DNA from: Deltaproteobacteria bacterium
Lineage (GTDB): Bacteria; Desulfobacterota; DSM-4660; Desulfatiglandales; B25-G16
Reading direction: 5' to 3'
Length of the DNA: 64,000 nucleotides
Assembly (NCBI GenBank): GCA_020349945.1
Contig: CP070704.1
Span: 509,700-573,699, forward strand
Below, piece by piece: positions 6,389 to 34,993 of the stretch (position 1 is the first letter of the stretch; each line of letters starts with the position of its first letter). The notes below the pieces were generated by a model, which worked only from the letters and a program-made list of their open reading frames with translations, was not told the DNA's origin and did no database searches. A program made the position numbers and the translations under genes.

Positions 6389-7879
6389 ATGCCATTAATG
6401 ACACCAGGAGAATTCGAGGAATCTCTAAAGGACCTGAAGCCCAGGGTCTTTATGAACGGGGAAAAGGTGGGCAATATCCTTGAAAATAGGAACACCCGAA
6501 CGGTTGTGGAAGCCAATAAGGCAAGCTATGCCTGGGCCTTAGACCCGAAATATAAGGATATCATGACATGCTATTCTCCCCTTATCAGTGATGTGGTCAA
6601 TCGCTATACCCATGTGAGTGCAAGCGCTGAGGATCTGGTAAAGAAGGCTGAAGCAGGCACCTTTACCGCAGAGATGCTGGGGACGTGTATATACCGTTGC
6701 GTAGGGTATGATGCCTTCCACTCTCTAGCCAGTACTACCTGGGAGATGGACAGGGATTTGGGGACAGGGTATCATCCCCGCTTCATAGAGTACCTCAAGA
6801 TGGTTCAGAGAAAAGATCTATCCGTGGCTGGAGCGCTTACCGAGCCGAGAGGTAAACGCAGCCAAAAGACCTTGGACTGGCCCGACCCTTATCTTTCACT
6901 CAAGGTGGTCGACAAAAACAAGGAGGGTATCGTCGTTCGTGGGGCAAAGATAAATATCAGCGGCGCCTTTGCCAGCCATGAGCTTGTTGTTCTACCCCAG
7001 GCTGCCCACTTCGAGGGTGAGCAAGATTACGCCATAGCATTTGCCACACCACCCGATGCCGAGGGCATTACCTATGTGTGCCAGTATTCGCCATATTCCG
7101 CCGAGAGAGATATGGCCGAAGATTTAGAGGAACTGGGAAATCCCGTCTTCGGCCAGCGAGAGACATCCATGGTCATATTCGACAACGTATTTGTTCCATG
7201 GGAAAGGGTATTTCACTGCGGGGAGTACGGCTATTCCATCAAGTTTGTGACACGATTCGCCAAGACCCACCGCATGACCTGTGGTGGGACATGTAAGGTG
7301 GGTTTCATGAATCAGATCATTGGGGCCGCAAAACTGATTCAAGAATACAAGGGTTTAGACAAGGCAACACACATCAATGACCAGTTGATGGAGATGGTCG
7401 TTTTGAGGGAAACAGGTCGGGCCTGTGGTATGGCCGCTGCCACCAGGGGCGTGGAAGAACCTCCCGGATCAGGCGTCTTTTTGCCGGATGAGCTAATGGG
7501 TAATGTTTCCAAGCTGAACATCTGCAATGCCTTCTGGAGGGTTATGGCGCTGGCCGGAGACATCGGCGGTGGCCTAATCGTGACAATGCCTTCAATCAAA
7601 GAATTGAAAAATCCCAAGGTGAAGGATTACGTGGAAGAATTTTACAGCTTCGGCTCTGATGAACCCACGGAAAATATCATGAAGGTTCATAAACTCCTCC
7701 AGTACTGGACGGCTGGCCAACATGGTGTAGCTACGTGGCATGGGGCCGGACCGGTCATGACTCAGAAGATTATGCTACAGAGGGTCATAGACTACGAGCG
7801 CGAAAAAAATATTGTCAGGCAGACATTAAAACTCAAGGAAAAGAGGGCAAAAGACAGTAAGGGTGCATCAGAGAGCTAA
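6389..7879 (+). CDS. 4-hydroxybutyryl-CoA dehydratase / 4-hydroxyphenylacetate hydroxylase family protein (AbfD-like)
   Basis: 496 aa. CxxxC motif (GTCIYRCVG) and a later His/Cys cluster (THRMTCGGTC) match the AbfD [4Fe-4S] ligand pattern recalled from memory. Overall length and N-terminus are typical of the family. Confidence 0.75.
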   Translation: MPLMTPGEFEESLKDLKPRVFMNGEKVGNILENRNTRTVVEANKASYAWALDPKYKDIMTCYSPLISDVVNRYTHVSASAEDLVKKAEAGTFTAEMLGTCIYRCVGYDAFHSLASTTWEMDRDLGTGYHPRFIEYLKMVQRKDLSVAGALTEPRGKRSQKTLDWPDPYLSLKVVDKNKEGIVVRGAKINISGAFASHELVVLPQAAHFEGEQDYAIAFATPPDAEGITYVCQYSPYSAERDMAEDLEELGNPVFGQRETSMVIFDNVFVPWERVFHCGEYGYSIKFVTRFAKTHRMTCGGTCKVGFMNQIIGAAKLIQEYKGLDKATHINDQLMEMVVLRETGRACGMAAATRGVEEPPGSGVFLPDELMGNVSKLNICNAFWRVMALAGDIGGGLIVTMPSIKELKNPKVKDYVEEFYSFGSDEPTENIMKVHKLLQYWTAGQHGVATWHGAGPVMTQKIMLQRVIDYEREKNIVRQTLKLKEKRAKDSKGASES

Positions 7880-7892
7880 AAAGGGGATAATA

Positions 7893-9815
7893 ATGAAAGA
7901 TGCTATGGTCGTATTCCAGCCCTCTGGAATGAGGGGAAAAGTGCCTTTAGGTGAGACCCTCATAGAGGCTTCCCGAAGACTTGGAGCTGATATTGAATCC
8001 CTTTGTGGAGAAAGGATGCTATGCGGCAAGTGCAAGGTAAGGATTGAGGAGGGAAGGGAAAATCTTACCGAATTTCAGAGAGAAGAGGGAAACTTTATAT
8101 CTTTAGCTGAAAGAAAGGGAGGCCTTCGTCTTGCGTGTGCAGCTAAAATAACCGGAGATGTCCTTGTATTTGTGCCTGAGGAGACCCGGGCATCAAAGCA
8201 GGCAATAAGAAAGGCCCCTACCAAAAGGCCGATAAAGATCGATCCAGCGGTAAAACTGTACCCTCTGACCCTAAAAGAGGCCTCTATCGAGGATCCTTTA
8301 GGGGACTGTGAGAGACTCAACCAGGCCCTGGAAGAGCGATATGGATTGAAGAATATGAGCCTTGACCTTGAGGTGCTCAAGTCACTGGGCACAATCATAA
8401 GGAAAGGGAACTGGGAGATCACAGTTTCTATATGGAACAGCAGAGAGCTGATCAGAGTCCAGCCAGGAAGGGTAACCAATGCCTACGGACTGGCTGTCGA
8501 TATAGGGACTACAACAGTAGCCGGCTATCTTTGTAGCCTTGCTACCGGTGAGGTTTTGGCAACCTATTCCTTGATGAATCCCCAGGTGACCTATGGAGAG
8601 GATGTTATGTCACGAATAGCCTATCATATGATGCATCCAGACGATGGTTTACACAAGATGAGTCAAGCTATTGTTGAGGCCCTTAACAGCCTTGTTGTAA
8701 ACACAGTGAAAGAAACCAGCCTTACACCTGATGACATTGAAGACATGACAGTAGTTGGCAATACTGCTATGCACCACATCCTTTTAGGGATCAATCCTGA
8801 ATATGTAGGAACTGCCCCATTCCCTCCAGCCATCCATCACTCCATTGATGTTAAGGCCAGGGATATAGGAATCCGGATTAATCCATCATCCTATATCCAT
8901 ATTCTGCCCATTGAGGCTGGTTTTGTGGGAGCAGACAATGTAGGTCTATTAATCGCCGAAGAACCTTACAAAAAGAAGCCTATATGTTTGCTCATTGATA
9001 TCGGCACCAATGGTGAGCTCGTTCTTGGGAACAGGGACAAGCTTATGTCCTCATCATGTGCTACTGGCCCGGCCCTTGAAGGTGCACAGCTCACCTTTGG
9101 CATGAGGGCAGCCCCTGGTGCCATTGAACGGGTTATAATCGACCCAGAGACCCATGAGGTGAACTTCAAGGTAATTGGCAGGGATGAATGGTCCAAATAT
9201 TCCAGACCCGGGGAGATAAAGGCAAAGGGAATCTGCGGCACTGGTGTTCTTGACAGTTTGGCTGAACTTTACAGGGCCGGTATCATCTCAAAAAGCGGTG
9301 CCTTTAGCAAAACGCAAAGATCAAAGAGGTACAGGATAAACCAAGAAAATAATCAACCAGAGTTTGTGATTGCGTGGAAGGAGGAGACCTCTATCGGTCG
9401 GGACATCACCATCTCCCTTAAGGATATCAGGCAGATCCAATTGGCTAAGGGGGCTATCTACACTGGTTGCAAGCTCATGATGAGGAAGAGAGGAATAGAT
9501 AGTGTGGATAGAATTATTTTGGCTGGGGCCTTTGGGAGCTATGTCGATCCAGAAAAGGCTTTAATCATAGGCATGATCCCCGATTGCGATCTAAAGAAGG
9601 TATATTCTGTGGGTAATGCAGCAGGAGATGGGGCGAGGATTGCCCTTTTAAACAAAAACAAAAGGGCCGAGGCAGATCGCATCGCCAAACAAGTGGAATA
9701 CATAGAACTCACAGTAGAGGAGGACTTTCAAATGGAATTCACGTATTCCCTGCAACTTCCACACATGAGGGATACATTTCCTCACCTTAAAGGGATAGTT
9801 CCCGATGATAGCTAA
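7893..9815 (+). CDS. [2Fe-2S] ferredoxin-domain / ASKHA ATPase-domain protein (RACo-like, DUF4445 family)
   Basis: N-terminal plant-type 2Fe-2S motif (CGERMLCGKCKV). ASKHA phosphate motifs (GLAVDIGTTTV, LLIDIGTNGE). I prefer ATG 7893, preceded by AAAGGGG, over the GTG at 7863 given in the ORF track. Confidence 0.7.
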   Translation: MKDAMVVFQPSGMRGKVPLGETLIEASRRLGADIESLCGERMLCGKCKVRIEEGRENLTEFQREEGNFISLAERKGGLRLACAAKITGDVLVFVPEETRASKQAIRKAPTKRPIKIDPAVKLYPLTLKEASIEDPLGDCERLNQALEERYGLKNMSLDLEVLKSLGTIIRKGNWEITVSIWNSRELIRVQPGRVTNAYGLAVDIGTTTVAGYLCSLATGEVLATYSLMNPQVTYGEDVMSRIAYHMMHPDDGLHKMSQAIVEALNSLVVNTVKETSLTPDDIEDMTVVGNTAMHHILLGINPEYVGTAPFPPAIHHSIDVKARDIGIRINPSSYIHILPIEAGFVGADNVGLLIAEEPYKKKPICLLIDIGTNGELVLGNRDKLMSSSCATGPALEGAQLTFGMRAAPGAIERVIIDPETHEVNFKVIGRDEWSKYSRPGEIKAKGICGTGVLDSLAELYRAGIISKSGAFSKTQRSKRYRINQENNQPEFVIAWKEETSIGRDITISLKDIRQIQLAKGAIYTGCKLMMRKRGIDSVDRIILAGAFGSYVDPEKALIIGMIPDCDLKKVYSVGNAAGDGARIALLNKNKRAEADRIAKQVEYIELTVEEDFQMEFTYSLQLPHMRDTFPHLKGIVPDDS

Positions 9816-23902: not shown

Positions 23903-24640
23903 ATGATTGATCCGAAGAAAATGGGAAAAAAGGAGGAATCGGATCTCAAAGAGAAGATCACAAACCCCACACGGCGGGACTTTGTGAAGGGAATGGCTAT
24001 CGGCGCAGGTGCCTTAGCCTTAAGTCCCCTCCTGCGCAGTCGGGCAGAGGCAATAGACTACGATAACTTTGCCATCAAACAGGCCCTCCGGGGCGAGAAG
24101 GTCGGAGCGGGACGAGTCTCTCACGATTACCGGCTGTGTGTGGGATGCCGGGTCTGTGAGATGACCTGTGCCTATTACAACCAGAAGGAAATCAATCCAT
24201 TTAAGTCTCGCATCAAGATTTACACCTATCAGCCCGAGGTCTGGGTGGGTGTCGTGTGCACACAGTGTGGGGATAGGCCCTGCATGAACGCCTGTCCGGT
24301 AGAGCCCGATAAGGATGGCAGGAGGGCACTGTACGAAGACCCCAAGGGCAAAGGCCTGGCTGTTGACCGTGATAGGTGTATCCAATGTGGGCAATGCGTG
24401 GGAGCCTGCGCAGCACAGAGGAACAGCAGTCTCAGAATGACCGAGGAGAATTATCCCGACGGGTGCACCCTATGCGGTGGGGACCCACAGTGCGTCAAGA
24501 AGTGCCCCCAAGCTGCCCTTTCGATCTTACCTCGCACGACCGATGGGAAGTATGCAGCTAAACCAGCCGACATTATGGCAGCTGAGGCTATTGAAACCCT
24601 TTATGGGGGACCAAAGACCATCGTGGATAATTGGAAATAG
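23903..24640 (+). CDS. Tat-signal four-cluster 4Fe-4S ferredoxin-type subunit (NrfC/HybA/DmsB-like)
   Basis: TRRDFVKG twin-arginine signal. Four Cys groups: CVGCRVCEMTC, CTQCGDRPCMNACP, CIQCGQCVGAC and CTLCGGDPQCVKKCP. Confidence 0.85.
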   Translation: MIDPKKMGKKEESDLKEKITNPTRRDFVKGMAIGAGALALSPLLRSRAEAIDYDNFAIKQALRGEKVGAGRVSHDYRLCVGCRVCEMTCAYYNQKEINPFKSRIKIYTYQPEVWVGVVCTQCGDRPCMNACPVEPDKDGRRALYEDPKGKGLAVDRDRCIQCGQCVGACAAQRNSSLRMTEENYPDGCTLCGGDPQCVKKCPQAALSILPRTTDGKYAAKPADIMAAEAIETLYGGPKTIVDNWK

Positions 24641-24678
24641 ACCGATACCCACCACATGAAGAAAGGAGGTAAAGAGAG

Positions 24679-26460
24679 ATGGCTGGAGGATATGTAGGAA
24701 AGATCTTGGAGGTCGATCTGACTACCAAGACAATCAAGAAGACACCGTTGAATACGAAAGATGCGGAGATGTTCATCGGTGGAAGGGGCTTAGGGGCCAA
24801 GCTTCTCTGGGATCGAACCAAGCCGGGAGGACACTACCTGGATCCTGATACCCCGATCTGCTACATGAGCGGCCCGGTGAATGGTCTTCCGGCGCCGGGT
24901 GCTGCTCGACTGACCATCGTGACCAGGTCTGCATCGACGTTTCCCAAGAGCAATTCCAAACACACTGGTATCGTCCATACCAATTGTGGCGGTCGCTGGA
25001 CCCCGGAGCTGAAGTTTGCCGGATACGATGCCGTGATCGTCACCGGGGCCTCTGCTAGCCCGGTTGGCATTGCGATTGAAAACGACGATGTGAAGATCGT
25101 ACCTGCGGGTAAGTACTGGGGCATGGGTACCTATGACTTACAAGATGCCCTGGATGCGGACTTTGGTCGGCGCTATCAGACCGTCTACATCGGGCCGGCA
25201 GGAGAAAATTTGGTCAGGTACGCCAATATCCTGACGGAGATCCACCACGCCTGTGGCAGGGGTGGAAGCGGTGCGGTCATGGGTTCCAAGAAGCTCAAAT
25301 TCATCACCGTAAGAGGGACTAATGGTCTTTCCATCGACAATATGAGGACCTGGCAGGCTGCCAATAAAAAGGCGTGGGACGAGGTTATGTCCAGTGGCGG
25401 CTATAATGAATGGAAACGGTTGGGCACTGGCATGGTGGTGACCGGATCCAGCGACTGGGGCTCCGAGGCCGTGTATAACTTCAAGGAAGGCACCTACGTG
25501 TACGCCGATGATATAAGCACGGAGAAGGCGCTCAGGAACCTCTGGGTCGGTAATCACGCATGCTTCATGTGTCCCCTCGCCTGCCTGCACAGGGGCGTGG
25601 TCCGAAAAGGTCGTTTCTCCGGGATGACCCATGATGGTCCTGAGTATGAGGGTGTCATGATGGGCGCCAACTGTGGCGTCAGGGACCTTGCCGGGTGGCA
25701 GGCCAACATTGCAGCGGCCGATGACTATGGCCTCTGTTATATCTCCATGGGCAATGTGATCGGCTTCGTCATGGAATGCTTTGAGAAGGGCGTCATCACC
25801 GCAGCAGACCTGGATGGCATCTCGCTGAAATGGGGCGATGTGGATGCGATGCTTGAGATCCAGAAGAAGGTGGCCTATGGCACTGGTTGTGGAAAGCTTC
25901 TGGGCCAGAACCTGCGAGCCCTGGTAGCGGCATGGGGCAAAGGCTGTGGAGACTACGCCATGGAGACCAAGGGCCAGGGATTCGCGGCCTGGAATGTGAG
26001 GGCCTTAAAGGGCTTTGAAACCACCTATGCCACTGCCAACCGGGGGGCCGATCATCTCGAGGGCGTTGATATCTCTATCCAGAACACGCGGATAATGAAC
26101 GACGCCCTTGGCATCTGCCTCTTTCAGCAACTCTGTGGGCTCACACCTGAGACCATGAAGGATCTGCTCAATGCAACTACCGGTTACAGGCTCGGCATGG
26201 ACGATTACTGGAAGACTGCGGAGCGCCTGTTTACCTTGGAGCGGAGCTTCAACGTGCGTGAGGGCTTTAGCAGGGATGACGACACTATCCCTCCACGAGC
26301 GTTTAAGGAAGCCCTGTCCGTTGGGGCCGCCAAAGGGGCCATCCTGAACTATAAGGACTTCAACCAGCTGTTGGATAAGTACTATAAGGATCGGGGCTGG
26401 GATAACAAGGGTATTCCCACAAAGGCCCGATTGAGCGAGTTAGGGTTGGATTTCGTTTAG
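24679..26460 (+). CDS. aldehyde:ferredoxin oxidoreductase family tungstoenzyme (AOR-1)
   Basis: 593 aa. AOR N-terminal domain (KILEVDLT, GGRGLGAKLLW) and the AOR alpha-helical domains. No signal peptide of its own. Confidence 0.9.
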   Translation: MAGGYVGKILEVDLTTKTIKKTPLNTKDAEMFIGGRGLGAKLLWDRTKPGGHYLDPDTPICYMSGPVNGLPAPGAARLTIVTRSASTFPKSNSKHTGIVHTNCGGRWTPELKFAGYDAVIVTGASASPVGIAIENDDVKIVPAGKYWGMGTYDLQDALDADFGRRYQTVYIGPAGENLVRYANILTEIHHACGRGGSGAVMGSKKLKFITVRGTNGLSIDNMRTWQAANKKAWDEVMSSGGYNEWKRLGTGMVVTGSSDWGSEAVYNFKEGTYVYADDISTEKALRNLWVGNHACFMCPLACLHRGVVRKGRFSGMTHDGPEYEGVMMGANCGVRDLAGWQANIAAADDYGLCYISMGNVIGFVMECFEKGVITAADLDGISLKWGDVDAMLEIQKKVAYGTGCGKLLGQNLRALVAAWGKGCGDYAMETKGQGFAAWNVRALKGFETTYATANRGADHLEGVDISIQNTRIMNDALGICLFQQLCGLTPETMKDLLNATTGYRLGMDDYWKTAERLFTLERSFNVREGFSRDDDTIPPRAFKEALSVGAAKGAILNYKDFNQLLDKYYKDRGWDNKGIPTKARLSELGLDFV

Positions 26461-26494
26461 TATCTGATCCCCTTCAGGCGAGTCTTGACTAACG

Positions 26495-26532
26495 TAAAGG
26501 TCCCGGGTAATCCCCGGGACCTTTACTCTTTT
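26495..26532 (+). terminator. Rho-independent terminator after AOR-1
   Basis: 13-bp perfect stem TAAAGGTCCCGGG / CCCGGGACCTTTA, loop TAATC, followed by CTCTTTT. Confidence 0.75.
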
Positions 26533-26550
26533 ACCTTACTTCGGTATCTT

Positions 26551-26678
26551 CCCCCATTCTGCCTAAGCTTCAGATAGGTAAAGAACGTGCCCCAGAACCG
26601 GAAGGCCTGCCTGTGGAACCGCTTCCCAATCGCAGACCCAAAGAAAGGCCATCCCAATCTCCGATGATATCTCGCAAA
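26551..26678 (-). pseudogene. orphan 3'-end fragment of a ThiF/E1-like gene (direct-repeat copy A)
   Basis: 117/128 nt identical (hand alignment) to 28981-29108, the 3' end of the intact E1-like gene. It translates to ...RYHRRLGWPFFGSAIGKRFHRQAFRFWGTFFTYLKLRQNGG. Confidence 0.8.
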
Positions 26679-26845
26679 GGGGTGTGTTTGTGGATGACAT
26701 CAAGAGGTTCTTGAAAGAGGATATTCAAGAACCGGCCTATCATATAATTCACAATAGTTAGGAGGTGATATGGGGTCGCGAACATCATGAGCAAGTCATA
26801 GGCCTCTTTTGAAAAACCTTTAACCCGTATATGGAGGTATCAGAG

Positions 26846-28585
26846 ATGAGCAAAATCCTACGCGTCAACATGACGGATCTCACAGCAAGGTATCAGGATG
26901 TGCCCGTGAAGTACAAGCTCATGGGTGCGCGTTGGCTTACCTCGTCCATGGTGTCCGATGAGGTCGAGCCCACCTGCCACCCCCTGGGGCCTACCAATAA
27001 GTTGGTGTTTGCCCCGGGTATCGTTACTGGCACGGCCGCGCCTACCAGCGCCCGTATCTCGGTGGGCAGCAAGTCGCCACTGACCGGCACGATCAAGGAA
27101 TCCAATGCTGGCACCAAGTTCAGCCCCATGCTGGCCAAGCTGGGCATCAAGGCCGTCGTGGTGGAAGGCCAGCCCAAGGAGGGTATGTGGTACCTTCTGG
27201 AAGTCACCAAGGACGGCGCTCGACTCTTGCCAGCCACTGATCTGGCCGGCAAAGGGGCCTACGCCACCACTAACGCCCTGATCAAGAGGTACGGCAAAGT
27301 GGGTGTGTGCTGTATCGGCCTGGCCGGCGAGATGAAAATGGCCATGGCCGGCGTGTGCTTTAACGACCTGAGCGATCGCGCTAGTCGTTACTCGGGTCGC
27401 GGTGGGCTGGGGGCAGTGATGGGGACCAAGGGCCTTAAGGCCATGGTCGTGGACAACAAAGACGGCCCTGGCGTCAGTATCGCTAACCAAGAACTCTTCG
27501 GTCAGGGTTGCAAGAAACTAACCGAGGCCCTACAAACCCACGCCATAACCAAGCCCAAGGGGGCCCTAAACACTTACGGCACGGCGGTCTTGATCAACAT
27601 CCTGAACGAGGCCGGTGGTCTGCCCACCCGCAACTTCGCCAGCGGAACCTTTGAGGGCGCGCCCAAGATCGCCGGCGAGGCGATTTTCGAAGGCAACAAG
27701 CAGCGCCTGGGCAAGGAGCTTTACAACCACGCCTGCAGCCCTGGCTGCATCATCCAGTGCTCCAACACCTGGCATAACCCTGACGGCAGCGAACAGGTCT
27801 CCTGTCAGGAATACGAGTCAGTGTGGGCCTTTGGGGCCAACTGCGGCATCGATGATCTGGACGTGACTGCTGAGCTGATCCGTATCAGCAACGACCTGGG
27901 CGTTGACACCATTGAGTCCGGCGGCACCATCGCCGTGGCCATGGAGGGCGGCCTGGCCAAGTTCGGTGACGGGCAAAAGGCCATTGAGCTGATGCAGGAG
28001 ATCGGTAAGGGCACACCCCTGGGCCGCATCCTGGGGCAGGGTGCCGCCTTCACCGGCAGGGCCTTGGGGTTAGTCCGGGTGCCAGGAGTCAAAGGTCAGA
28101 ACATGCCTGCCTACTCCCCACGGGCGGTAAAAGGCATTGGCGTGACCTATATGACCAGCACCCAGGGAGCCGACCACACTATCGGCTACACCATCGCTCC
28201 GGAGATTCTCTCTGTGGGCGGCAAGGCTGATCCCTTGAGCCCTGAGGGGAAGGCTGAGTTGTCGCGTAACTTCCAGATAGCCACTGCCTTCCTGGACTCT
28301 ACTGGCTACTGCGTGTTCATTGCCTTCGCTATCCTGGATATCCCTAAAGGGTTTGAGGGGATGGTACAGAGCTGTGCCGCAGTGCTGGGGACTAACTGGA
28401 CGGCCGATGACGTAACCCGCATCGGCAAGGAGATCCTCAGGAAGGAGCGGGCCTTTAACGAGGCTGCCGGCTTCACCAGGGCGGATGACCGCCCCCCAGA
28501 GTTCATGCGCTATGAAGCACTCCCGCCCCACAACAAGCTCTGGGACATACCCAATAAGGCACTGGACAGCGTCTGGGATTTCTAG
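26846..28585 (+). CDS. aldehyde:ferredoxin oxidoreductase family tungstoenzyme (AOR-2)
   Basis: About 580 aa of classical AOR layout (KILRVNMTDL, SVGSKSPLTG, GGLGAVMG). Visibly GC3-rich. ATG 26846 follows GGAGG. Confidence 0.9.
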   Translation: MSKILRVNMTDLTARYQDVPVKYKLMGARWLTSSMVSDEVEPTCHPLGPTNKLVFAPGIVTGTAAPTSARISVGSKSPLTGTIKESNAGTKFSPMLAKLGIKAVVVEGQPKEGMWYLLEVTKDGARLLPATDLAGKGAYATTNALIKRYGKVGVCCIGLAGEMKMAMAGVCFNDLSDRASRYSGRGGLGAVMGTKGLKAMVVDNKDGPGVSIANQELFGQGCKKLTEALQTHAITKPKGALNTYGTAVLINILNEAGGLPTRNFASGTFEGAPKIAGEAIFEGNKQRLGKELYNHACSPGCIIQCSNTWHNPDGSEQVSCQEYESVWAFGANCGIDDLDVTAELIRISNDLGVDTIESGGTIAVAMEGGLAKFGDGQKAIELMQEIGKGTPLGRILGQGAAFTGRALGLVRVPGVKGQNMPAYSPRAVKGIGVTYMTSTQGADHTIGYTIAPEILSVGGKADPLSPEGKAELSRNFQIATAFLDSTGYCVFIAFAILDIPKGFEGMVQSCAAVLGTNWTADDVTRIGKEILRKERAFNEAAGFTRADDRPPEFMRYEALPPHNKLWDIPNKALDSVWDF

Positions 28586-28637: not shown

Positions 28638-28653
28638 CTTTGTGAGGACGAAC

Positions 28654-28959
28654 ATGATCGAGATTTACCTCTACGGCAAGCTACGACGCTTTGCTAGAGA
28701 TCAGGACCCCACCGGGTATTCCGTCGTCCATAGCATAGTGCAAGCGGGGGACAGCATCCAAGGTGTGCTAAAGCGTCTGGGTATCCCTATGGAAGAGGTG
28801 GGGAGGAACATCTTCCTCAACCGGCAATACTCTGCCCTGACGAGACGTGTCAAGGATGGCGACCGCCTGGCGGTGTTCCCGGACAACATGCAGCTGCTGT
28901 ATAGCTGGTATTTTGTGAAAGTGGGTGAGGACCATGAGGTTAAGAAAGATAAATCCTAA
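28654..28959 (+). CDS. ThiS/MoaD-superfamily beta-grasp protein (Ub-Mut7C-like), no C-terminal Gly-Gly
   Basis: IEIYLYGKLRRF...GIPMEEVGRNIFLNRQ...VKDGDRLAVFP matches the beta-grasp pattern. A 25-aa tail follows and ends KKDKS rather than GG. Confidence 0.6.
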   Translation: MIEIYLYGKLRRFARDQDPTGYSVVHSIVQAGDSIQGVLKRLGIPMEEVGRNIFLNRQYSALTRRVKDGDRLAVFPDNMQLLYSWYFVKVGEDHEVKKDKS

Positions 28960-28970
28960 TATATCCCCTG

Positions 28971-29906
28971 TCAACATTTCCCCCCATTCTGCCTGACCTT
29001 CAGATAAGTAAAGAACTTGCCCCAGAACCAGAAGGCCCGCCTGTGGAACCACTTCCCAATCGCCGACCCAAAGAAAAGCCATCCCAATCTCCGATGATAT
29101 CTCACAAATCGGCTGAACCGGGAGACCGAGATCTTCCCTCTCCTCACGTACCAGCACCGAGGTGCCTTTTTTGAATCCCATTTCCCCGAGGCTATCTTCA
29201 AAATCTCCAATGCCGCAAGGCTGGCCATCATCCATTCAACAGGGCAAAAGAGGGCAAGAGGTCGACGCCCTTTAAAATATTCCCAGAACCAGTCCACCCG
29301 CCAATCACCTGCTGTAATGAGCCTATATTGGGCACACTGGTAAACCGTGGAGCGCATTACCCGGCGCAGACCCTCATAATCAAGCTCCGGTATGCCTAAG
29401 ACCTTCTCTATGGTCGGACCCTTCTCTTTGAATACGCTAACCCATCCCATTGAGCCTGAGGGCAAGCATAGAACAGCGGGTTTTCCATGCCTTCTCGCTG
29501 CACGAAAAAGCAGGATGCTATAAGCCAGATCGTCTACGGCCGGGATAACAATATCGGCTGTGGGGATCAATTGATTCATCTCTTCCTCTGAGGGGAGATG
29601 ACTATGGATGTTGACCTTCGAATTCGGGTTGATCGAGAGGATGGTATCCCGGATTTGTGCGACCTTACTTCGGCCAATGGTATCTGAAAAGCAGCAGATC
29701 TGTCGATTCATGTCAGAAGGAACATAGACCCCCTCCCCTGAGATAATAAACTCCTCTACCCCGCTGCGGGCCAAGATCACAGCGATGGTTTCTCCTGTGC
29801 CAGTATCTCCTCCGATCAACACACGCGTATGCCTTATGCGCTGCTGCTCGCCCTCGGTGAAGACTCCATAATTTCTTTGAAATAATGTCCTGTAATCCAC
29901 ATCCAT
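28971..29906 (-). CDS. ThiF/HesA/MoeB-family E1-like protein, paralogue 1 (altered glycine loop)
   Basis: 311 aa. NMNRQ-type block (DMNRQICCF) and AVDD. The glycine loop reads GGDTGTGE instead of GxGxxG. No CxxC pairs. The C-terminal tail is rich in Trp, Phe and Arg. Confidence 0.8.
   Translation of the reverse strand: MDVDYRTLFQRNYGVFTEGEQQRIRHTRVLIGGDTGTGETIAVILARSGVEEFIISGEGVYVPSDMNRQICCFSDTIGRSKVAQIRDTILSINPNSKVNIHSHLPSEEEMNQLIPTADIVIPAVDDLAYSILLFRAARRHGKPAVLCLPSGSMGWVSVFKEKGPTIEKVLGIPELDYEGLRRVMRSTVYQCAQYRLITAGDWRVDWFWEYFKGRRPLALFCPVEWMMASLAALEILKIASGKWDSKKAPRCWYVRRGKISVSRFSRFVRYHRRLGWLFFGSAIGKWFHRRAFWFWGKFFTYLKVRQNGGKC
28981..29108 (-). repeat. direct-repeat copy B (3' end of intact E1-like gene)
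   Basis: Partner of 26551-26678. The two copies bracket the AOR-2 plus beta-grasp segment. Confidence 0.8.
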
Positions 29907-29928
29907 GAAAAGGTCTAGTTGAGTGGGC

Positions 29929-30891
29929 TTAAGGTCTGGCGGGATGCTGAGGTCTACGTTGCTCGCGGCGTTTCACCCATGGATAATAGAGCCTCCACCA
30001 TGCCGCTTGGAGTCCCTCCTGAAGGGGGCCGAAGCGACTCTGGAACACCCACCACATGAACCTCCTTTGCCATACCAGTAAGGTTTGCAGAGAGGGTCCA
30101 TTGATGCGATTGATCCGGATCTTTTCCCTGGTGATGCTCCAGTATCTCGGCGAGGCAACGAGCTTCCACTTTCCGCTGAAGAATTTCAAGGCCTCCAGGG
30201 CCCCGAGGGAGGAAGCGAGCCATACAACAGGACAGATCTGGGCTAGGGGGAATCCTTCCTCCATGAATCCCCGGTAGTAATCGATTCGCCAATCCGCAAT
30301 CGGGACATAGAAATATGTCCAAAACTTGTACTTTCGGATCTGTGCCGTTTCTCGAAGTTCCTCGTACGTAGCAAGTTTCGGGATACCCTCGATATCCTCT
30401 GGAGAGGGCCTATCAGGCGGTATGATGCTCACATTTGCCCAGGTTCCCGAGGGAACGACCATCAAGGCCGTCTTGCCCAGTTTCCGGGCATCCCGAAAAA
30501 CGAAGATGCTGAATGAAAAATCATCGGCGGCTGGAAAGACCAAGTCGACTTGGGGAATCAGCTGAGCGATCTCGGAATGGTTCAACAGATCTTCATGGAC
30601 CTCCACCTGGGCCTCGGGGTTGATCCGCAAAATCTGTTCTTTGATAACCTGCGCCTTGTTTCGGCCGACTGTATCAAGAAAGCAGGCAATCTGCCGGTTC
30701 ATGTTCGCTGGCTCGTAGCGATCGAACTCTATGAGCACAAAGCGGCTCACCCCTGAACGGGCCAGCATGATGGCTACCGATCCACCAATCCCCCCACAGC
30801 CTACGATCAGAATACTGGCGTGCCGGATCCTTTGCTGTTCGTCCCTTGAAAAGATTCCATAGTTCCTCTGAAACAGCTCTTCATAATGCAT
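29929..30891 (-). CDS. ThiF/HesA/MoeB-family E1-like protein, paralogue 2 (canonical GxGxxG)
   Basis: 320 aa. VGCGGIGGS, NMNRQIACF and AADD blocks. No CxxC pairs. Trp/Arg-rich C-terminal tail. The start overlaps the stop of the upstream membrane-protein gene by 11 nt. Confidence 0.8.
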   Translation of the reverse strand: MHYEELFQRNYGIFSRDEQQRIRHASILIVGCGGIGGSVAIMLARSGVSRFVLIEFDRYEPANMNRQIACFLDTVGRNKAQVIKEQILRINPEAQVEVHEDLLNHSEIAQLIPQVDLVFPAADDFSFSIFVFRDARKLGKTALMVVPSGTWANVSIIPPDRPSPEDIEGIPKLATYEELRETAQIRKYKFWTYFYVPIADWRIDYYRGFMEEGFPLAQICPVVWLASSLGALEALKFFSGKWKLVASPRYWSITREKIRINRINGPSLQTLLVWQRRFMWWVFQSRFGPLQEGLQAAWWRLYYPWVKRREQRRPQHPARP

Positions 30892-31558
30892 TGCCCTCTT
30901 CCTTCTCGACCCCTTTCTTCCTCCTATAAAATCTCACGGGTACCCATCCGTGGGTTAACGATGAGAGCACACAGAGGATCCCGGCACTGATTGCCAAATA
31001 ATATGATGGTAGAAAATACGTATGAACGATTACCCTCGCCATATCCCGAAAAATAATGAACTGCCCTGTTACTGGCTGGCCTATCCTGTGGGTGCCAAAA
31101 AGGAGGGATCCATAAAATCCCGCGATGTAAATGAGCATCAACACACCGCTCGATACAATATAGAGCCTCCCCTTCTTTCCAGCCATAGTACTCCCCCAGA
31201 AGGCAAGGAACAGGTACCCTAAGAGGGCCAAAAGCAGGATCACGACTACTGGAAGGGGTGTCTCGATAATATACCTCACCCCTTCTATCGGGAGATCATG
31301 GCTCAAGATGAATGCATACGCGTCAATGCTATGACGCCCTTCCCGGACAGTTGCATGCCACCAAGGATGAAAGAGGCTCGCAGCAAAGCCAACTCCTGCC
31401 AGAAGCCCCAAGGGATTATAGAGGGTCAATTCATGGAAGTGCCCAGAGAGGACCCTTAAGAATCCCCGAAACCCCTTAATCTCTTGACCCTCTTGTTCCA
31501 ATCTCCTCCGGGTGGAATCATCTATCAGGACCCTGATCAAAGGGCTAAATAGTTTCAT
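30881..31558 (-). CDS. polytopic membrane protein, unknown family
   Basis: At least four hydrophobic helices. ATG 31558 is preceded by AGGAG and avoids overlap with the upstream gene. The ORF track extends to 31642. Confidence 0.55.
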   Translation of the reverse strand: MKLFSPLIRVLIDDSTRRRLEQEGQEIKGFRGFLRVLSGHFHELTLYNPLGLLAGVGFAASLFHPWWHATVREGRHSIDAYAFILSHDLPIEGVRYIIETPLPVVVILLLALLGYLFLAFWGSTMAGKKGRLYIVSSGVLMLIYIAGFYGSLLFGTHRIGQPVTGQFIIFRDMARVIVHTYFLPSYYLAISAGILCVLSSLTHGWVPVRFYRRKKGVEKEEGNAL

Positions 31559-31581
31559 TTCCAGCTCCTCTTGCTGTGTTG

Positions 31582-31989
31582 CTACGTTGACGGTAGTGAA
31601 AAGAATGGTCTTGCAGAGATCGGGCCATAGGTTTCCCCACATCCCATGATAACCAGTTTATAGAAATACGTGGATTCACCAGGCAGTCTTTTGTCAACAT
31701 ATCTATATTCCATACTCTCTTGAGCATAAGGAACGGTTGCTATCTCGCTATATGGCCCGTCAGCAAAACTATCACTGCGAAGTATTTGAAAGGTAGCCCC
31801 CTTTTCAAAAGGGGCCTTTACCTTCCACCTTAGCTTTACTGCTCGATAAAGGGATTGAGCCTTGAAATCGGAGATTAAGGCTCCTCCTGGATCCTTATCC
31901 CCCGAGGTTGCCATAGCTGGCAATATTGTGAAAGTAGCCACGGCCGCCACAATGACGGGAAATAGATATTTCATCATGCTGTCTTTCAT
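31582..31989 (-). CDS. small exported beta-sandwich (Fn3/Ig-like) protein
   Basis: Signal peptide (MMKYLFPVIVAAVATFTILPAMA). Pattern LRWKV...FQILRSD...YRYVD...TYFYKL. Start is ambiguous (31989, 31977 or 32037). Confidence 0.5.
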   Translation of the reverse strand: MKDSMMKYLFPVIVAAVATFTILPAMATSGDKDPGGALISDFKAQSLYRAVKLRWKVKAPFEKGATFQILRSDSFADGPYSEIATVPYAQESMEYRYVDKRLPGESTYFYKLVIMGCGETYGPISARPFFSLPST

Positions 31990-32084
31990 TACCTCCTCGT
32001 CAAACCTAAACAATAAAACTAGCCCCACCCACTCCAAAACTAAAAATCAGTAGCGAGATGGATGGGGCTATCTAACTAGGGGAT

Positions 32085-33266
32085 TTAGATGATTATCTTG
32101 ATATCACCATCGTTTCTGGCATAGCCTATGCCCAGTTTAACCGCATGGGCTATCTGGTTAACATGCCAGGCGTCCATGGTGATCTTATTCTGGACCGTAG
32201 GATACCATTCTTGCAGGAGCTTAATCCCCCATACATCATTGGCCACTTGATCGCCAGAGGCAAGGACAAAGCCAGGTTTCACCATCTCGCCATGAGAGGG
32301 TCCACCGCTGATAAATGACCTGCGCCCATCCATGACAATCAGGTCAGGACGGAATGGCAGATTGATCTCAGCCGCCTGCTGGCCCACAAAGACGTGATTG
32401 AAGTTGTGGAGGTGTCCTCCCCTATCTGCACGGTGGAGTGTTCCCACTGACAGCTTCAGGCTCTGGGTAATGTGGCCCAAGAAATGGGTCTTCATGACAG
32501 GCGTATAGATGATCTTATCGAAATCCCGAAAGTCCGCAGGATATGCAACCGTCCCGTCACCACCGCCGAATCTTCCCAGAAATTCCGCCTTCTCGTTTGT
32601 GATATTCATCCACTTCATCTTATCCCAGTCATGAAGGGCGACACCATTAGCTTGACACACCTTGTCATAGCCCACAATCTTGATAACCCTTTCCGTGGGT
32701 CCCCATGGTCCACACGAATCGGCCACGGTCAAGTTTGCGTACCCCTCATCCTGGAGCACCTTGATCAGGGCGTCGAGGAAGTTGGGGTCAGTGCCCCCAC
32801 CTGGCCATGGATCAGCAGTATTCATATTGGGTTTGATCATGATCTTATCTGTCTTCTTAAGGGCCTTCCCAAAACCGCCAATCTTCTTGACCGCCTTGCT
32901 TATATCCCCTTTCAGGTCTTTATCCAGTGGCGCGGAGCTAACGATGCTGACCAGGGACTTGCCTCCCTCAGAGTAGTAGTTTGGGTGCAGATGGGACCAT
33001 TTAACCGGCTTCCCACCGTTTATCATCTCCTCAGGGTCTTTATCGAAATACCCCTTTGGAAGCGGTGCGTTACCGATAAACTCACCGTACGCATCAAGCT
33101 GTACATCCCTCATCTGCCAAACACCTGTCTGTGCAGGCTGATCCAGATCATCTACAGCATGGGCATTTTTCCTCAAACCCAAGAGACCAACGGCAGCAAC
33201 ACCTGCTCCACAATACTTGACAACGTCCTTAAAAAAATTCCTGCGTGTTACGTCCTTGAAATTCAT
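32085..33266 (-). CDS. Tat-signal DUF362-domain protein
   Basis: TRRNFFKD twin-arginine signal. DUF362 blocks (IMIKPNMNT, PVMKTHFLG, LIVMDGR, ASGDQVANDVWG). Confidence 0.8.
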   Translation of the reverse strand: MNFKDVTRRNFFKDVVKYCGAGVAAVGLLGLRKNAHAVDDLDQPAQTGVWQMRDVQLDAYGEFIGNAPLPKGYFDKDPEEMINGGKPVKWSHLHPNYYSEGGKSLVSIVSSAPLDKDLKGDISKAVKKIGGFGKALKKTDKIMIKPNMNTADPWPGGGTDPNFLDALIKVLQDEGYANLTVADSCGPWGPTERVIKIVGYDKVCQANGVALHDWDKMKWMNITNEKAEFLGRFGGGDGTVAYPADFRDFDKIIYTPVMKTHFLGHITQSLKLSVGTLHRADRGGHLHNFNHVFVGQQAAEINLPFRPDLIVMDGRRSFISGGPSHGEMVKPGFVLASGDQVANDVWGIKLLQEWYPTVQNKITMDAWHVNQIAHAVKLGIGYARNDGDIKIII

Positions 33267-33651: not shown

Positions 33652-34311
33652 CTAAAAAGGCCAGAGAAAACAACAGCCTCTTCTTTGAAATTCTCTTTCG
33701 CAGGAGGCCAATTGGCCCTTATATGTCCTTGCCCTACCTTCAACCTTACGGGCTACCTGTAATAACCATGCCTTTTTTCGATAAGACTTTCGGTTAAACC
33801 CTCCATGACCCTCATGATAGGCTAAATAGAGATGGTATGGATCCTTTTTTGATATCCTGCACCTGAGGTAACTCAAATGGCAGTACCATCCAATAAAATC
33901 AAGGCTATCCTCAAAATCATCCCTATCAGCCCCTGTGTTGCCCCTGCTCTTACGGTACTCTTCCCATGTCTCATTACCTGCCTGTGTATATCCATAAGCG
34001 GAAGAGGGGCGAGGACCAGGGAAAATCCACAGACAACTACCGCGGGGTGGTCTGGCATCAGCCCTGAATTTTGATTCCTGATGGATAATGGCCATCAGAA
34101 CAGGTATGGGTATACCCCACCTCCTGGAGGACCCATGTGCGCTCTTGTACCATTTTGGATTTTCCCTGAAGACCTCGCAAATATTGTAGATATGTTTGGG
34201 TTGGGGAATGGTAGCACACCCATGAAAAAGGATGAGCACAAAGCAGGCAAAAGATATAGGAGCAAATCTGTAGAGGTCTTTCCGCCTTCTAACCTTAGCC
34301 ACCCTTTTCAA
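33652..34311 (-). CDS. lipoprotein with lytic transglycosylase (SLT)-like domain
   Basis: Lipobox-like LFHGC. IIHQESKF catalytic-Glu block, then AYGYTQ. Confidence 0.65.
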   Translation of the reverse strand: MKRVAKVRRRKDLYRFAPISFACFVLILFHGCATIPQPKHIYNICEVFRENPKWYKSAHGSSRRWGIPIPVLMAIIHQESKFRADARPPRGSCLWIFPGPRPSSAYGYTQAGNETWEEYRKSRGNTGADRDDFEDSLDFIGWYCHLSYLRCRISKKDPYHLYLAYHEGHGGFNRKSYRKKAWLLQVARKVEGRARTYKGQLASCEREFQRRGCCFLWPF

Positions 34312-34993
34312 ACCTAGCCTTTACCCGGATGGTAATCTCAGGCCTTTCAAGATAATTGGTCTTCAGCTTCAAAAAACCCCGGTAGGTCCCCACTGTGTTG
34401 GGGATGCTGGTAAAATGGATCCTGAATTCCCTCCCTGCCTCAACCTCCTCTATACTGTAAGTCACTTGTTTGCTGAGGCTAAAATGGCTTGGTTCAAGCT
34501 TCAGGGGTTGGTTTTCTCCCGCCCTGACTCTGACGGTCTTGGTGATTTCTCGATCCGCCGTTCCCCTCAGGTAAACGTATCTGGGAGATAGATGGATGGG
34601 TACCTTAACAAAGGCCTTAATGGTTAATACTTCAACATTCTTGCGTGGGTCATTGGTGTAGACCGTGGCTTCTTTCCGGATGTCATCCCTGTAACCTCTG
34701 GTCTTTATCCTTAAGGTAATCTTTCCCTCCCCTCCGGGGGGGATGGTCCTGTCAAAGCGGGCCACTGCACAGCCTCAACCAGGGCTGACCTTTTTTATCT
34801 CAAGGGTACGGTCACCCACATTACGAACCGTAAAGGTGTGCTCAATAATCTCGCCCTGTTTAACCTGTTGAGCATCAAAATATTTATCCTCTAAAACCAT
34901 CCTTGGCCCAATGACCTGCTGGGCCCAACCTGCGGTGAGGTTGAGGATGATCCAGGCAGTCAGCAAAGAGCTCCCATACAGTAGCTTTATCAT
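34295..34993 (-). CDS. exported DUF1573-like protein with in-frame TGA (candidate selenoprotein, otherwise a pseudogene)
   Basis: The 72-aa and 156-aa ORFs are in the same frame (699 nt = 233 codons), separated by a single TGA. The joined sequence reads ...LEIKKVSPG-[TGA]-GCAVARFDRTIPPGGEGKITLRI, matching the DUF1573 xCGCxxx...PGxxGxI pattern. Confidence 0.6.
34775..34777 (-). other. in-frame UGA aligned with the first Cys of the DUF1573 CGC motif (candidate Sec codon)
   Basis: Read directly: ggt TGA ggc tgt gca gtg on the minus strand. Confidence 0.5.

Follow-up and report, generated by a model that had tools for sequence, protein, structure and literature searches.

Within a 64,000-nucleotide (nt) stretch of a Deltaproteobacteria bacterium genome (GenBank assembly GCA_020349945.1, contig CP070704.1, positions 509,700 to 573,699 of the forward strand; hereafter the window), five open reading frames (ORFs) lie co-directionally on the minus strand at positions 28971-33266, and the conserved unit among them is made of three genes, not five: a membrane protein (MEM) followed by two tandem E1-like (ThiF-superfamily) paralogues, here called P2 and P1. 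We consider this MEM + P2 + P1 architecture of the module highly probable. As to its role, the module may be an accessory or maturation factor of aldehyde oxidoreductases of the AOR/WOR family, possibly also of other pterin enzymes, and probably through sulfur-carrier chemistry, which is a tentative reading, possible rather than probable. What the data show directly is the gene layout, the conserved motifs, the fusions, the neighbourhoods and the fold models; the heterodimer, its membrane binding, its adenylation activity and its physiological role are inferred from these. A first-pass annotation, made from the letters of the DNA, had proposed all five genes as one operon; its gene order and coordinates agree with the ORF list of the window, and the 11-nt overlap that it gave between the MEM stop and the P2 start is correct. 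The gaps inside MEM-P2-P1 measure -11, 22 and 23 nt.

For comparison, 93 related loci were used (metagenome contigs and one genome per species), of which 86 formed the first comparison set, 80 of them from the one-genome-per-species scan. Nearly all related sequences come from metagenome-assembled genomes (MAGs) or metagenome contigs, their ORFs were called mechanically, and many loci belong to kindred MAGs, so that the counts given here are not independent and carry no phylogenetic correction. The E1-like family itself is rare: a search of 5.8 billion proteins gave 217 clusters at E <= 1e-10. In the loci found with the E1 proteins as seeds, the distance between MEM and an E1 gene is at most 145 nt in 34 of 35 cases, and when MEM served as the seed, it directly preceded the E1 gene or genes in all six loci (6/6), with the called genes overlapping in L092 and L093. 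An overlap of the stop of one gene with the start of the next is frequent. The neighbourhood check suggested by the first-pass annotation thus had a divided outcome, as MEM-P2-P1 is conserved while the five-gene block is found only in close relatives.

P1 and P2 share 41% identity over the full length and both reach the Pfam ThiF cut-off (PF00899, 28.1 bits), with 96.5 and 131.9 bits, respectively. The adenylation residues of P2 are complete (Arg9, G31xGGxG36, Asp57, Asn65-Arg66-Gln67, Lys79 and Asp123, with an AADD block); these motif residues are invariant in 21 homologues, and the motifs are conserved in 72 orthologues from the related loci. P2 is therefore predicted from its motifs to be the catalytic adenylyltransferase protomer. 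In P1 the glycine loop reads GGDTGTGE (29790-29813), where P2 has GCGGIGG (30781-30801). The pattern G-D-S/T-G-x-G-E is present in 26 of 26 P1 orthologues and retains GxxGxG; the ribose-binding aspartate (Asp57) is not conserved in them, while NRQ, Lys and DD are kept, and P1 also retains the N-terminal Arg. Since all 26 orthologues carry the same altered loop, it is not the product of random decay, and P1 is a conserved altered paralogue rather than a decaying copy. The loop, together with the loss of Asp57, suggests that P1 may not bind ATP, and P1 is predicted to be the non-catalytic partner.

Neither protein has the CxxC motifs of the MoeB/ThiF zinc site on direct reading. The only cysteines of P2 are C32, C70 and C220, and since none lies between residues 71 and 219, there is no crossover-loop cysteine. 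P2 contains no rhodanese domain and neither a catalytic-Cys nor a ubiquitin-fold domain, its length and model accounting for an adenylation fold plus a tail only. Without a crossover-loop cysteine, zinc CxxC motifs or rhodanese domain, an acyl-adenylate formed by P2 would need an external nucleophile. The first-pass annotation had claimed NRQ and DD blocks in both proteins, a CxxC pair in neither, and different glycine loops, and all of this was borne out, coordinates included.

Membership in known E1 families was judged by curated Pfam and NCBIfam hidden Markov model cut-offs, and both proteins stay below those of every named family, so that by this measure neither falls in MoeB, ThiF, TcdA or ThiF_fam2, in line with the atypical character that the first-pass annotation had given them. 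The scores of P2 and P1 are 71.5 and 46.5 bits for MoeB (TIGR02355, cut-off 376.55), 84.0 and 61.3 for the second MoeB model (NF004281, 266), 82.7 and 57.6 for ThiF_fam2 (TIGR02354, 152.2), 108.6 and 80.2 for the ThiS adenylyltransferase (NF006395, 159), and 66.1 and 35.0 for TcdA, the ct6A dehydratase (NF011696, 304); the cut-off of UbaA or any other named NCBIfam family is likewise reached by neither. The top-scoring profile is always PRK08223 (NF006077), at 97.5-150.8 bits against a cut-off of 266 (119-151 bits for the members compared from Desulfobacterota, Chloroflexota and Hadarchaeota); this is true of the two proteins of the window as well as of their homologues in Chloroflexota, Dehalococcoidia, Hadarchaeota and Desulfobacterales. 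The alignment to it is limited to the N-terminal ~170 residues, and PRK08223 is a family without an assigned function, on which we found no literature. In the source databases, family members are annotated as ‘molybdopterin/thiamine biosynthesis adenylyltransferase’, and some carry the TcdA name.

The AlphaFold2 model of P2 (pLDDT 86.6) has a generic E1 fold that matches MoeB, ThiF, MccB, AclA, PaaA and UBA5 about equally, at 17-24% identity. Compared with E. coli MoeB and ThiF, P2 is alike in fold (Foldseek E 1.6e-15, target-normalised template-modelling (TM) score 0.81) and shares the P-loop, Asp, NRQ, Lys and DD adenylation motifs. MoeB needs no essential catalytic cysteine, and P2 is the same in this respect. 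However, P2 is only ~20% identical to these enzymes, lacks the CxxC zinc site and an adjacent carrier, and has a ~60-residue helical insertion (150-215) and a 50-residue tail. It could be argued that the pair is an ordinary soluble substitute of MoeB or ThiF, standing in for the housekeeping sulfur-carrier E1, its tails serving dimerisation or stability and MEM being a chance neighbour, given that the fold is nearest to those two enzymes, that the annotations point the same way, and that single-copy members stand in housekeeping neighbourhoods. We give this explanation a slim chance, because the scores lie far under the MoeB, ThiF and ThiF_fam2 cut-offs, the zinc motifs are absent, the family is so rare, MEM stands next to an E1 gene almost without exception and in overlapping frames, and a conventional E1 co-occurs with the module in L006.

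The best sequence match of P2 in the PDB is MccB, the microcin C7 synthetase (1.7e-19), and PaaA and AclA are among the fold matches, from which one might think of the adenylation of a short precursor peptide, as in ribosomally synthesised and post-translationally modified peptide (RiPP) pathways of the MccB or PaaA type. This is very improbable, since the MccB match, which includes the GCGGIG loop, is limited to the nucleotide-binding half, and P2 is without the ~90-residue N-terminal peptide clamp (the alignment begins at MccB residue 99 and P2 residue 8). The genomic context also differs from that of MccB: the gaps within the module are too short for a precursor gene, no exporter or immunity genes were found, and clustering of the ORFs of at least 70 amino acids (aa) near E1 genes, the size range that it took in, gave no conserved small partner. 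An MccB-type assignment was thus rejected for the missing clamp and for the lack of an adjacent precursor gene among ORFs of that size.

Closely spaced genes in the order P2-P1 occur in ~28 loci, and in-frame P2-P1 fusions are present in three assemblies of different lineages, L028 (652 aa), L033 (689 aa) and L092 (640 aa). The three fusions are independent, and the linkers of L028 and L033, the two that were compared, differ. Tandem order together with in-frame fusion is Rosetta-stone evidence for a heterodimer, and supports the association of P2 and P1 as an active and an altered protomer, as the first-pass annotation had proposed by analogy with heterodimeric E1 enzymes. The fusions are compatible with either catalytic state of P1. 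Similar to SAE1/UBA2, NAE1/UBA3 and UBA1, an intact and an altered adenylation domain are paired here and naturally occur in one chain; unlike the eukaryotic E1 enzymes, P2/P1 lack the catalytic-Cys and ubiquitin-fold domains, the intact domain comes first in the fusions, and P1 keeps NRQ, Lys and DD. The pair is an independent bacterial duplication, with 41% identity between the two copies.

Both proteins end in tails that are rich in Trp, Phe and Arg over about 50 aa, a composition already described in the first-pass annotation and now found to be conserved in the family. The last 50 residues contain 11 (P2) and 15 (P1) Trp/Phe/Tyr and 10 (P2) and 12 (P1) Arg/Lys, with two acidic residues in P2 and none in P1. 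Across the family, the median is 8-11 aromatic and 9-12 basic residues per ~48 residues, and such tails are conserved in the P1 group, the P2 group and the single-copy bacterial members, while Hadarchaeota homologues are without aromatic tails. The P2 tail is modelled as two helices (268-283 and 288-312).

MEM has no Pfam or NCBIfam match, and the members of its 82 homologue clusters are all named hypothetical. An exhaustive profile search of 1.84 billion representatives gave 46 proteins of 58-230 aa, none of them a MEM-E1 fusion. The AlphaFold2 model (pLDDT 86.5) contains four transmembrane helices, an outer-loop beta-sheet to which both loops contribute, and N-terminal cytoplasmic helices, so that the earlier description of a polytopic membrane protein holds, while its start should be moved, as M29 (31558) is a likelier initiation site than the ORF start at 31642 and is the one that homologues use. 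Conserved residues are located on both membrane faces. In the structure search that had been recommended, the only significant PDB matches of MEM by Foldseek were claudins and TARPs (E 3.5e-5, TM scores 0.41-0.53), a match that is significant but loose; for the DUF362 protein no PDB relatives were found. The matches of MEM hint at a scaffolding role and not at that of an enzyme or transporter. Like claudins, TARPs and PMP22, MEM as modelled has four transmembrane helices and an extracytoplasmic sheet formed from two outer loops; it differs in being bacterial, in its low TM scores (0.4-0.5) and identity (10-17%), and in the extra cytoplasmic N-terminal helices. The claudin loop-1 signature is W-LW-C-C; by eye, MEM does not have it, but has PWW and no Cys pair. 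The likeness is likely convergent or very remote. In L088 (7966-8643) and L089 (10821-11486), from the closest relatives that are not conspecific, P1 is followed by another MEM paralogue, which shares 56-58% identity with MEM (MEM-P2-P1-MEM2); there is none in the window, where AOR genes stand downstream of P1. As a side observation, L007 carries a cyclic di-GMP-I-GGC riboswitch (RF03167, 8445-8529, minus strand, 60.4 bits against a gathering score of 59) ~0.9 kb upstream of MEM and on the opposite strand.

The two remaining genes of the block encode exported proteins. The DUF362 protein reaches 119.5 bits (PF04015, cut-off 24) and has a twin-arginine (Tat) motif, TRRNFFK, so its earlier naming as a Tat-exported DUF362 protein stands. 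The 130-aa protein has the signal peptide MKYLFPVIVAAVATFTILPAMA, which agrees with the predicted export, but no Pfam or PDB sequence match was obtained for it and the Fn3/Ig-like fold claimed for it was not confirmed. Neither gene, nor the SLT_4 gene of the same flank, was detected in any of the 86 loci by tblastn and phmmer. DUF362 and the 130-aa gene join the module only in L088-L091, where E1 identity is ~80% or more: in L088 and L089 the homologues of the 130-aa protein are 63-65% and those of DUF362 84-88% identical, and in L090 and L091 gene calls of the same size stand at the position of the 130-aa gene. The flanks of L088 and L089 are syntenic with the window as well (SLT_4 and DUF1573, and in L089 also OmpA, DUF2784 and peptidase M1), so the five-gene linkage is explicable by descent alone.

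The earlier proposal of the five-gene block as a functional unit is thus not upheld, and DUF362 and the 130-aa protein are lineage-specific exported neighbours. In its stronger form it would mean that MEM, P2 and P1 pass an activated species across the membrane, with the DUF362 and beta-sandwich proteins, to a periplasmic cofactor enzyme. The genes are indeed tightly spaced, with no strong minus-strand terminator found within the block, DUF362 is the best conserved of the five, and the order DUF362-130aa-MEM-P2-P1 is kept in L088 and L089, which have no AOR gene near the module. Elsewhere, a Tat-exported Fer4-AOR, an RdhA-like protein or an amidohydrolase with an RR-motif N-terminus (L030/L040) adjoins the module, and the residues conserved on both faces of MEM would suit such a transfer. 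Nevertheless, the transfer is hypothetical, the two genes are missing from all 86 more distant loci, and shared descent suffices for L088 and L089, so we regard the idea as quite unlikely.

An AOR/WOR gene is the most frequent conserved neighbour of the module, being present within 7 kb in 39 of the 75 family loci used for this count, which span Desulfobacterota, Chloroflexota and one Peptococcaceae locus; in L001, L004 and L006 the called AOR genes have the Pfam domains AFOR_N/AFOR_C. The first-pass annotation had mentioned tungsten AOR genes nearby, correctly, but gave too little weight to what is the commonest conserved neighbour across phyla. Three types stand beside the module: a Tat-signal Fer4 protein with AOR, an AFOR_N protein with a membrane polyferredoxin, and a cytoplasmic AOR that comes with ferredoxin, Fe-alcohol dehydrogenases and SCP2. 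Homologues of the Tat-Fer4 protein at 23903-24640 adjoin AOR and E1 genes in 19 loci, and the co-directional order Fer4(Tat)-AOR-E1-MEM occurs in at least 15. Of 26 loci with a Tat-exported or membrane-polyferredoxin AOR, 24 contain MEM, compared with two of the ten whose AOR is cytoplasmic; the counts are inflated by genome relatedness. Together with its Tat small subunit, the window's AOR_a resembles the class V WORs, an exported type whose native enzymes have so far escaped purification (PMC13328260). In two loci only, too few to be used, a cpYpsA gene that resembles a MoCo carrier stands between AOR and the E1 pair.

Beside this, one conserved operon was observed in L049 (5900-17730), ~15 other Chloroflexota loci (L050-L069, L076) and the Peptococcaceae locus L061. 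It consists of a response regulator, Fer4(Tat), AOR, E1, MEM and a small CxxCH lipoprotein, followed by a Tat RdhA-like Fe-S protein, NuoE, NuoF and a 670-aa membrane polyferredoxin, and from its gene content it looks like an undescribed respiratory-type complex around an exported AOR.

The window also has a second AOR gene, AOR_b, with a Ub-Mut7C/ThiS-like beta-grasp gene next to it, which the first-pass annotation had regarded as a possible partner of the E1 proteins. Two direct repeats of 133 nt, 91% identical (26546-26678 and 28976-29108), are copies of the 3' end of P1, the upstream one being a pseudogene fragment of the P1 tail with 82% amino-acid identity, and they bracket AOR_b and the beta-grasp gene. 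Because of this bracketing, the cassette seems to have been inserted behind P1 at a later time; until then P1 and AOR_a would have converged on the hairpin at 26494-26526. The AOR_b arrangement is also that of L090 and L091, with the gene called there carrying Pfam AFOR_N/AFOR_C, and in L087 the beta-grasp gene is found without any E1. Members of the beta-grasp family are named ‘molybdopterin converting factor small subunit’ in the sources, but in the family alignment they end in a strictly conserved VFPDxMQLLYKWYFxK with no Gly-Gly (GG), and are thus not the usual thiocarboxylate carrier; such a function seems unlikely on this ground. The protein belongs with AOR_b and not with the E1 pair, and as an E1 substrate it was rejected for its end without GG, its E1-free occurrence in L087 and the duplicated P1 3' end that flanks the cassette. 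Just upstream of the beta-grasp gene of L087, a 29-aa remnant of the AOR_b C-terminus (7844-7930, 79% identical) was seen, the AOR itself being gone. The G+C content of the AOR region (24001-28000) is 0.56, compared with 0.47-0.50 on the DUF362/SLT_4 flank, which fits a later arrival of the AOR genes in the neighbourhood.

To hypothesize, P2 and P1 would form a heterodimeric E1-like adenylyltransferase in which P2 binds ATP/Mg and adenylates a carboxylate, while P1 is the structural partner that may supply its N-terminal Arg in trans, and an external nucleophile would resolve the acyl-adenylate. The cationic aromatic C-terminal helices, together with MEM as a putative claudin-fold scaffold translationally coupled to P2, would hold the dimer at the cytoplasmic face of the membrane. 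The module could then be an accessory of pterin-dependent AOR/WOR systems, above all exported or membrane-bound ones, and most likely it would use ATP to activate a carboxylate, sulfur-carrier or cofactor-related, while the AOR/WOR enzymes mature.

The maturation reading draws on the fact that E1 and ThiS/MoaD genes adjacent to AOR are a known theme, attributed to tungsten cofactor synthesis (PMC1779556, Iyer, Burroughs & Aravind 2006; PMC13328260, the WOR classification of 2026), and that an archaeal pair of an E1 and a ubiquitin-like protein (Ubl) has experimental tungsten-cofactor support: in T. kodakarensis (TK2117/TK2118), the E1 gave pyrophosphate only when combined with the Ubl, and deletion of the Ubl gene impaired W-cofactor-dependent enzymes (PMC11323500). 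It also draws on the archaeal homologues of the module proteins, which in Hadarchaeota stand among sulfur-incorporation genes, between HcyBio/NIL-Fer4 and a SepCysS-like gene. The AOR linkage itself and the distribution of MEM over the AOR types count in its favour too, as do the genes of another kind of pterin enzyme, the xanthine-dehydrogenase family, which adjoin the module in L072 and lie near it in L089.

Several observations weigh against the maturation reading. No GG-ended MoaD/ThiS-type small ORF is present in the window, and near the module such a carrier was found in only one of the 86 loci, L006, beside AOR and a P2-type E1; a carrier gene may lie elsewhere in the genome. The second adjacent E1 of L006 is a conventional full-length MoeB/ThiF-like protein beside ThiS, and therefore activating ThiS is not simply the task of the P2-type E1 in this locus, where both types coexist. 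MEM-E1-E1 occurs without AOR within 7 kb in L088, L092 and L093, and single E1s in housekeeping neighbourhoods have no AOR within that distance either. No molybdenum cofactor (Moco) biosynthesis genes were among the 20 flanking ORFs scanned. The Moco/tungsten-cofactor riboswitches (RF01055) of L008 (2945-3065), L016 (9047-9164) and L028 (9061-9179), all on the minus strand, stand upstream of the divergent (Tat)Fer4-AOR operon and face it, not MEM-E1; the intergenic region is common to this operon and MEM-E1-E1, and the riboswitches are on the strand opposite to the latter.

Direct control of the module by a Moco/W riboswitch was accordingly rejected, the three found all facing the AOR operon; none was found in the window or in seven Chloroflexota loci.

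A further point of this kind comes from Dehalococcoidia. In L072 (4673-16537), and likewise in L051, L058, L059 and L070, a xanthine-dehydrogenase-family Mo enzyme and an FAD subunit are followed by MEM, an unknown 376-aa protein, E1, a MaoC dehydratase, an acyl carrier protein (ACP), a ketoacyl synthase (KAS), a short-chain dehydrogenase/reductase (SDR), a second E1 with a degenerate loop and a GT1 glycosyltransferase. The MaoC-ACP-KAS-SDR/GT context, judged by gene content, points to acyl chemistry, and it is one reason to ask whether the membrane-bound pair could work at the interface and adenylate a small hydrophobic acid or the carboxylate of a lipid, such as the acid made by a neighbouring aldehyde oxidoreductase or a starter acid for ACP, with MEM docking the enzyme or delivering the substrate.

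AOR and the xanthine-dehydrogenase-family aldehyde oxidoreductases both yield carboxylic acids, Syntrophales loci have AOR, Fe-alcohol dehydrogenases and SCP2 lipid-carrier genes beside MEM-E1-E1, and the aromatic cationic tails would suit an interfacial enzyme. In addition, DUF362 is in the same Pfam clan as the N-terminal domain of the 2-hydroxyacid racemase LarA (PMC11770544), small N-acyl amino acids are among the known substrates of ThiF-like enzymes (PMC12596934), and no Ubl partner is encoded nearby, neither in the window nor, apart from the single GG-ended ORF, in the 86 loci. On the other side, no consistent link to a CoA-transferase, thioesterase or beta-oxidation gene was seen, the archaeal homologues stand in sulfur-transfer contexts and the single E1s in housekeeping ones, and a Tat-exported AOR would make its product on the opposite side of the membrane. 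We know of no ThiF-like enzyme that activates plain fatty acids or loads ACP, and none for these tasks appears in the outline of a 2025 review. Taken together, this is the main rival of the maturation reading, with a carboxylate of this type unlikely as the substrate.

Since there is no ATP outside the cytoplasm, MEM and P2/P1 could also be pictured as a novel type of membrane-embedded adenylation machine, in which cytoplasmic ATP would activate a carboxylate on a carrier protein, a cofactor precursor or a lipid for a step of extracytoplasmic enzymes, the clients being exported AOR/WOR, RdhA-like and DUF362 proteins. The DltA-DltC-DltB pathway follows an analogous logic, with the difference that an E1-like pseudo-heterodimer would here work with a claudin-fold protein. 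We find this picture unlikely.

With respect to the maturation reading, the question is how far the module differs from the known AOR-linked pairs of ThiF/MoeB and ThiS/MoaD. In both, the E1 gene is directly beside AOR/WOR, the Thermoplasmatales order Fer4-AOR-ThiF-ThiS is mirrored by the Chloroflexota Fer4-AOR-E1, and the module takes the place in gene order that ThiF-ThiS holds beside AOR in other organisms. However, the known pairs combine an E1 of the ThiF_fam2/MoeB type with a GG-ended ThiS, whereas the E1 of the module comes from another clade (TIGR02354 82.7 against 152.2), its fixed neighbour is a membrane protein instead of ThiS, it has a degenerate paralogue and aromatic tails, and in L006 it co-occurs with a conventional E1 and ThiS. 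No published account of the module was found in the literature, also not in connection with the PDB entries 9EGB/9EGC/9EGD, PRK08223 or the Chloroflexota operon. The novelty that the first-pass annotation had claimed is therefore partly justified: there is no paper on the module among those found, but AOR-linked E1/ThiS genes were already published (PMC1779556, PMC13328260). What is known is the E1-AOR gene linkage; undescribed in the literature found are this clade, the altered paralogue, the tails and the obligate claudin-fold partner.

The features of the region are collected in Table 1. Beyond them, a gene of the DUF1573/OS_HP2 family at 34295-34993 (minus strand), which matches the NCBIfam ‘OS_HP2 family (seleno)protein’, contains an in-frame TGA at 34775-34777 (context SPG-TGA-GC). 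This is probably a selenocysteine codon, and the product would be an exported protein of ~232 aa; its counterpart is split in two by the pipelines in L090 and L091.

Table 1. Coordinates of the module genes and of their neighbours in the window.
Feature	Position	Strand	Remarks
P1, E1-like paralogue	28971-29906	minus	311 aa; Pfam ThiF 1.7e-27
P2, E1-like paralogue	29929-30891	minus	320 aa; Pfam ThiF 2.6e-38
MEM, membrane protein	30881-31558	minus	225 aa from M29; mechanical ORF runs to 31642
Exported protein	31582-32037	minus	130 aa from likely start 31974; without Pfam family
Tat-signal DUF362 protein	32085-33266	minus	Pfam DUF362 2.6e-34
Tat-signal 4Fe-4S small subunit (WorS-like), partner of AOR_a	23903-24640	plus	TRRDFVKG motif
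AOR_a, AOR/WOR-family large subunit	24679-26460	plus	Translation detects AOR genes at family loci
Strong hairpin terminator after AOR_a	26494-26526	plus	14-bp stem, 9 GC pairs
Remnant of P1 3' end (tail codons 267-310)	26546-26678	minus	133-nt direct repeat
AOR_b, single-subunit AOR	26831-28585	plus	Between the two copies of the P1 3' end
Ub-Mut7C/ThiS-like beta-grasp protein (‘WorX’-type)	28642-28959	plus	Pfam Ub-Mut7C 3.9e-9

AOR/WOR maturation is largely obscure, especially that of the exported class V, and a putatively membrane-tethered E1 module that adjoins AOR/WOR genes in two phyla is a testable candidate for an accessory factor in it. It is unusual for a claudin-fold protein of bacteria to have a fixed enzyme partner, and a bacterial pair of an intact and an altered adenylation domain, with fusions among its members, parallels the presumed route to the eukaryotic E1 enzymes. 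If the substrate should prove to be a small or lipid carboxylate, the module would extend the known chemistry of ThiF-like enzymes.

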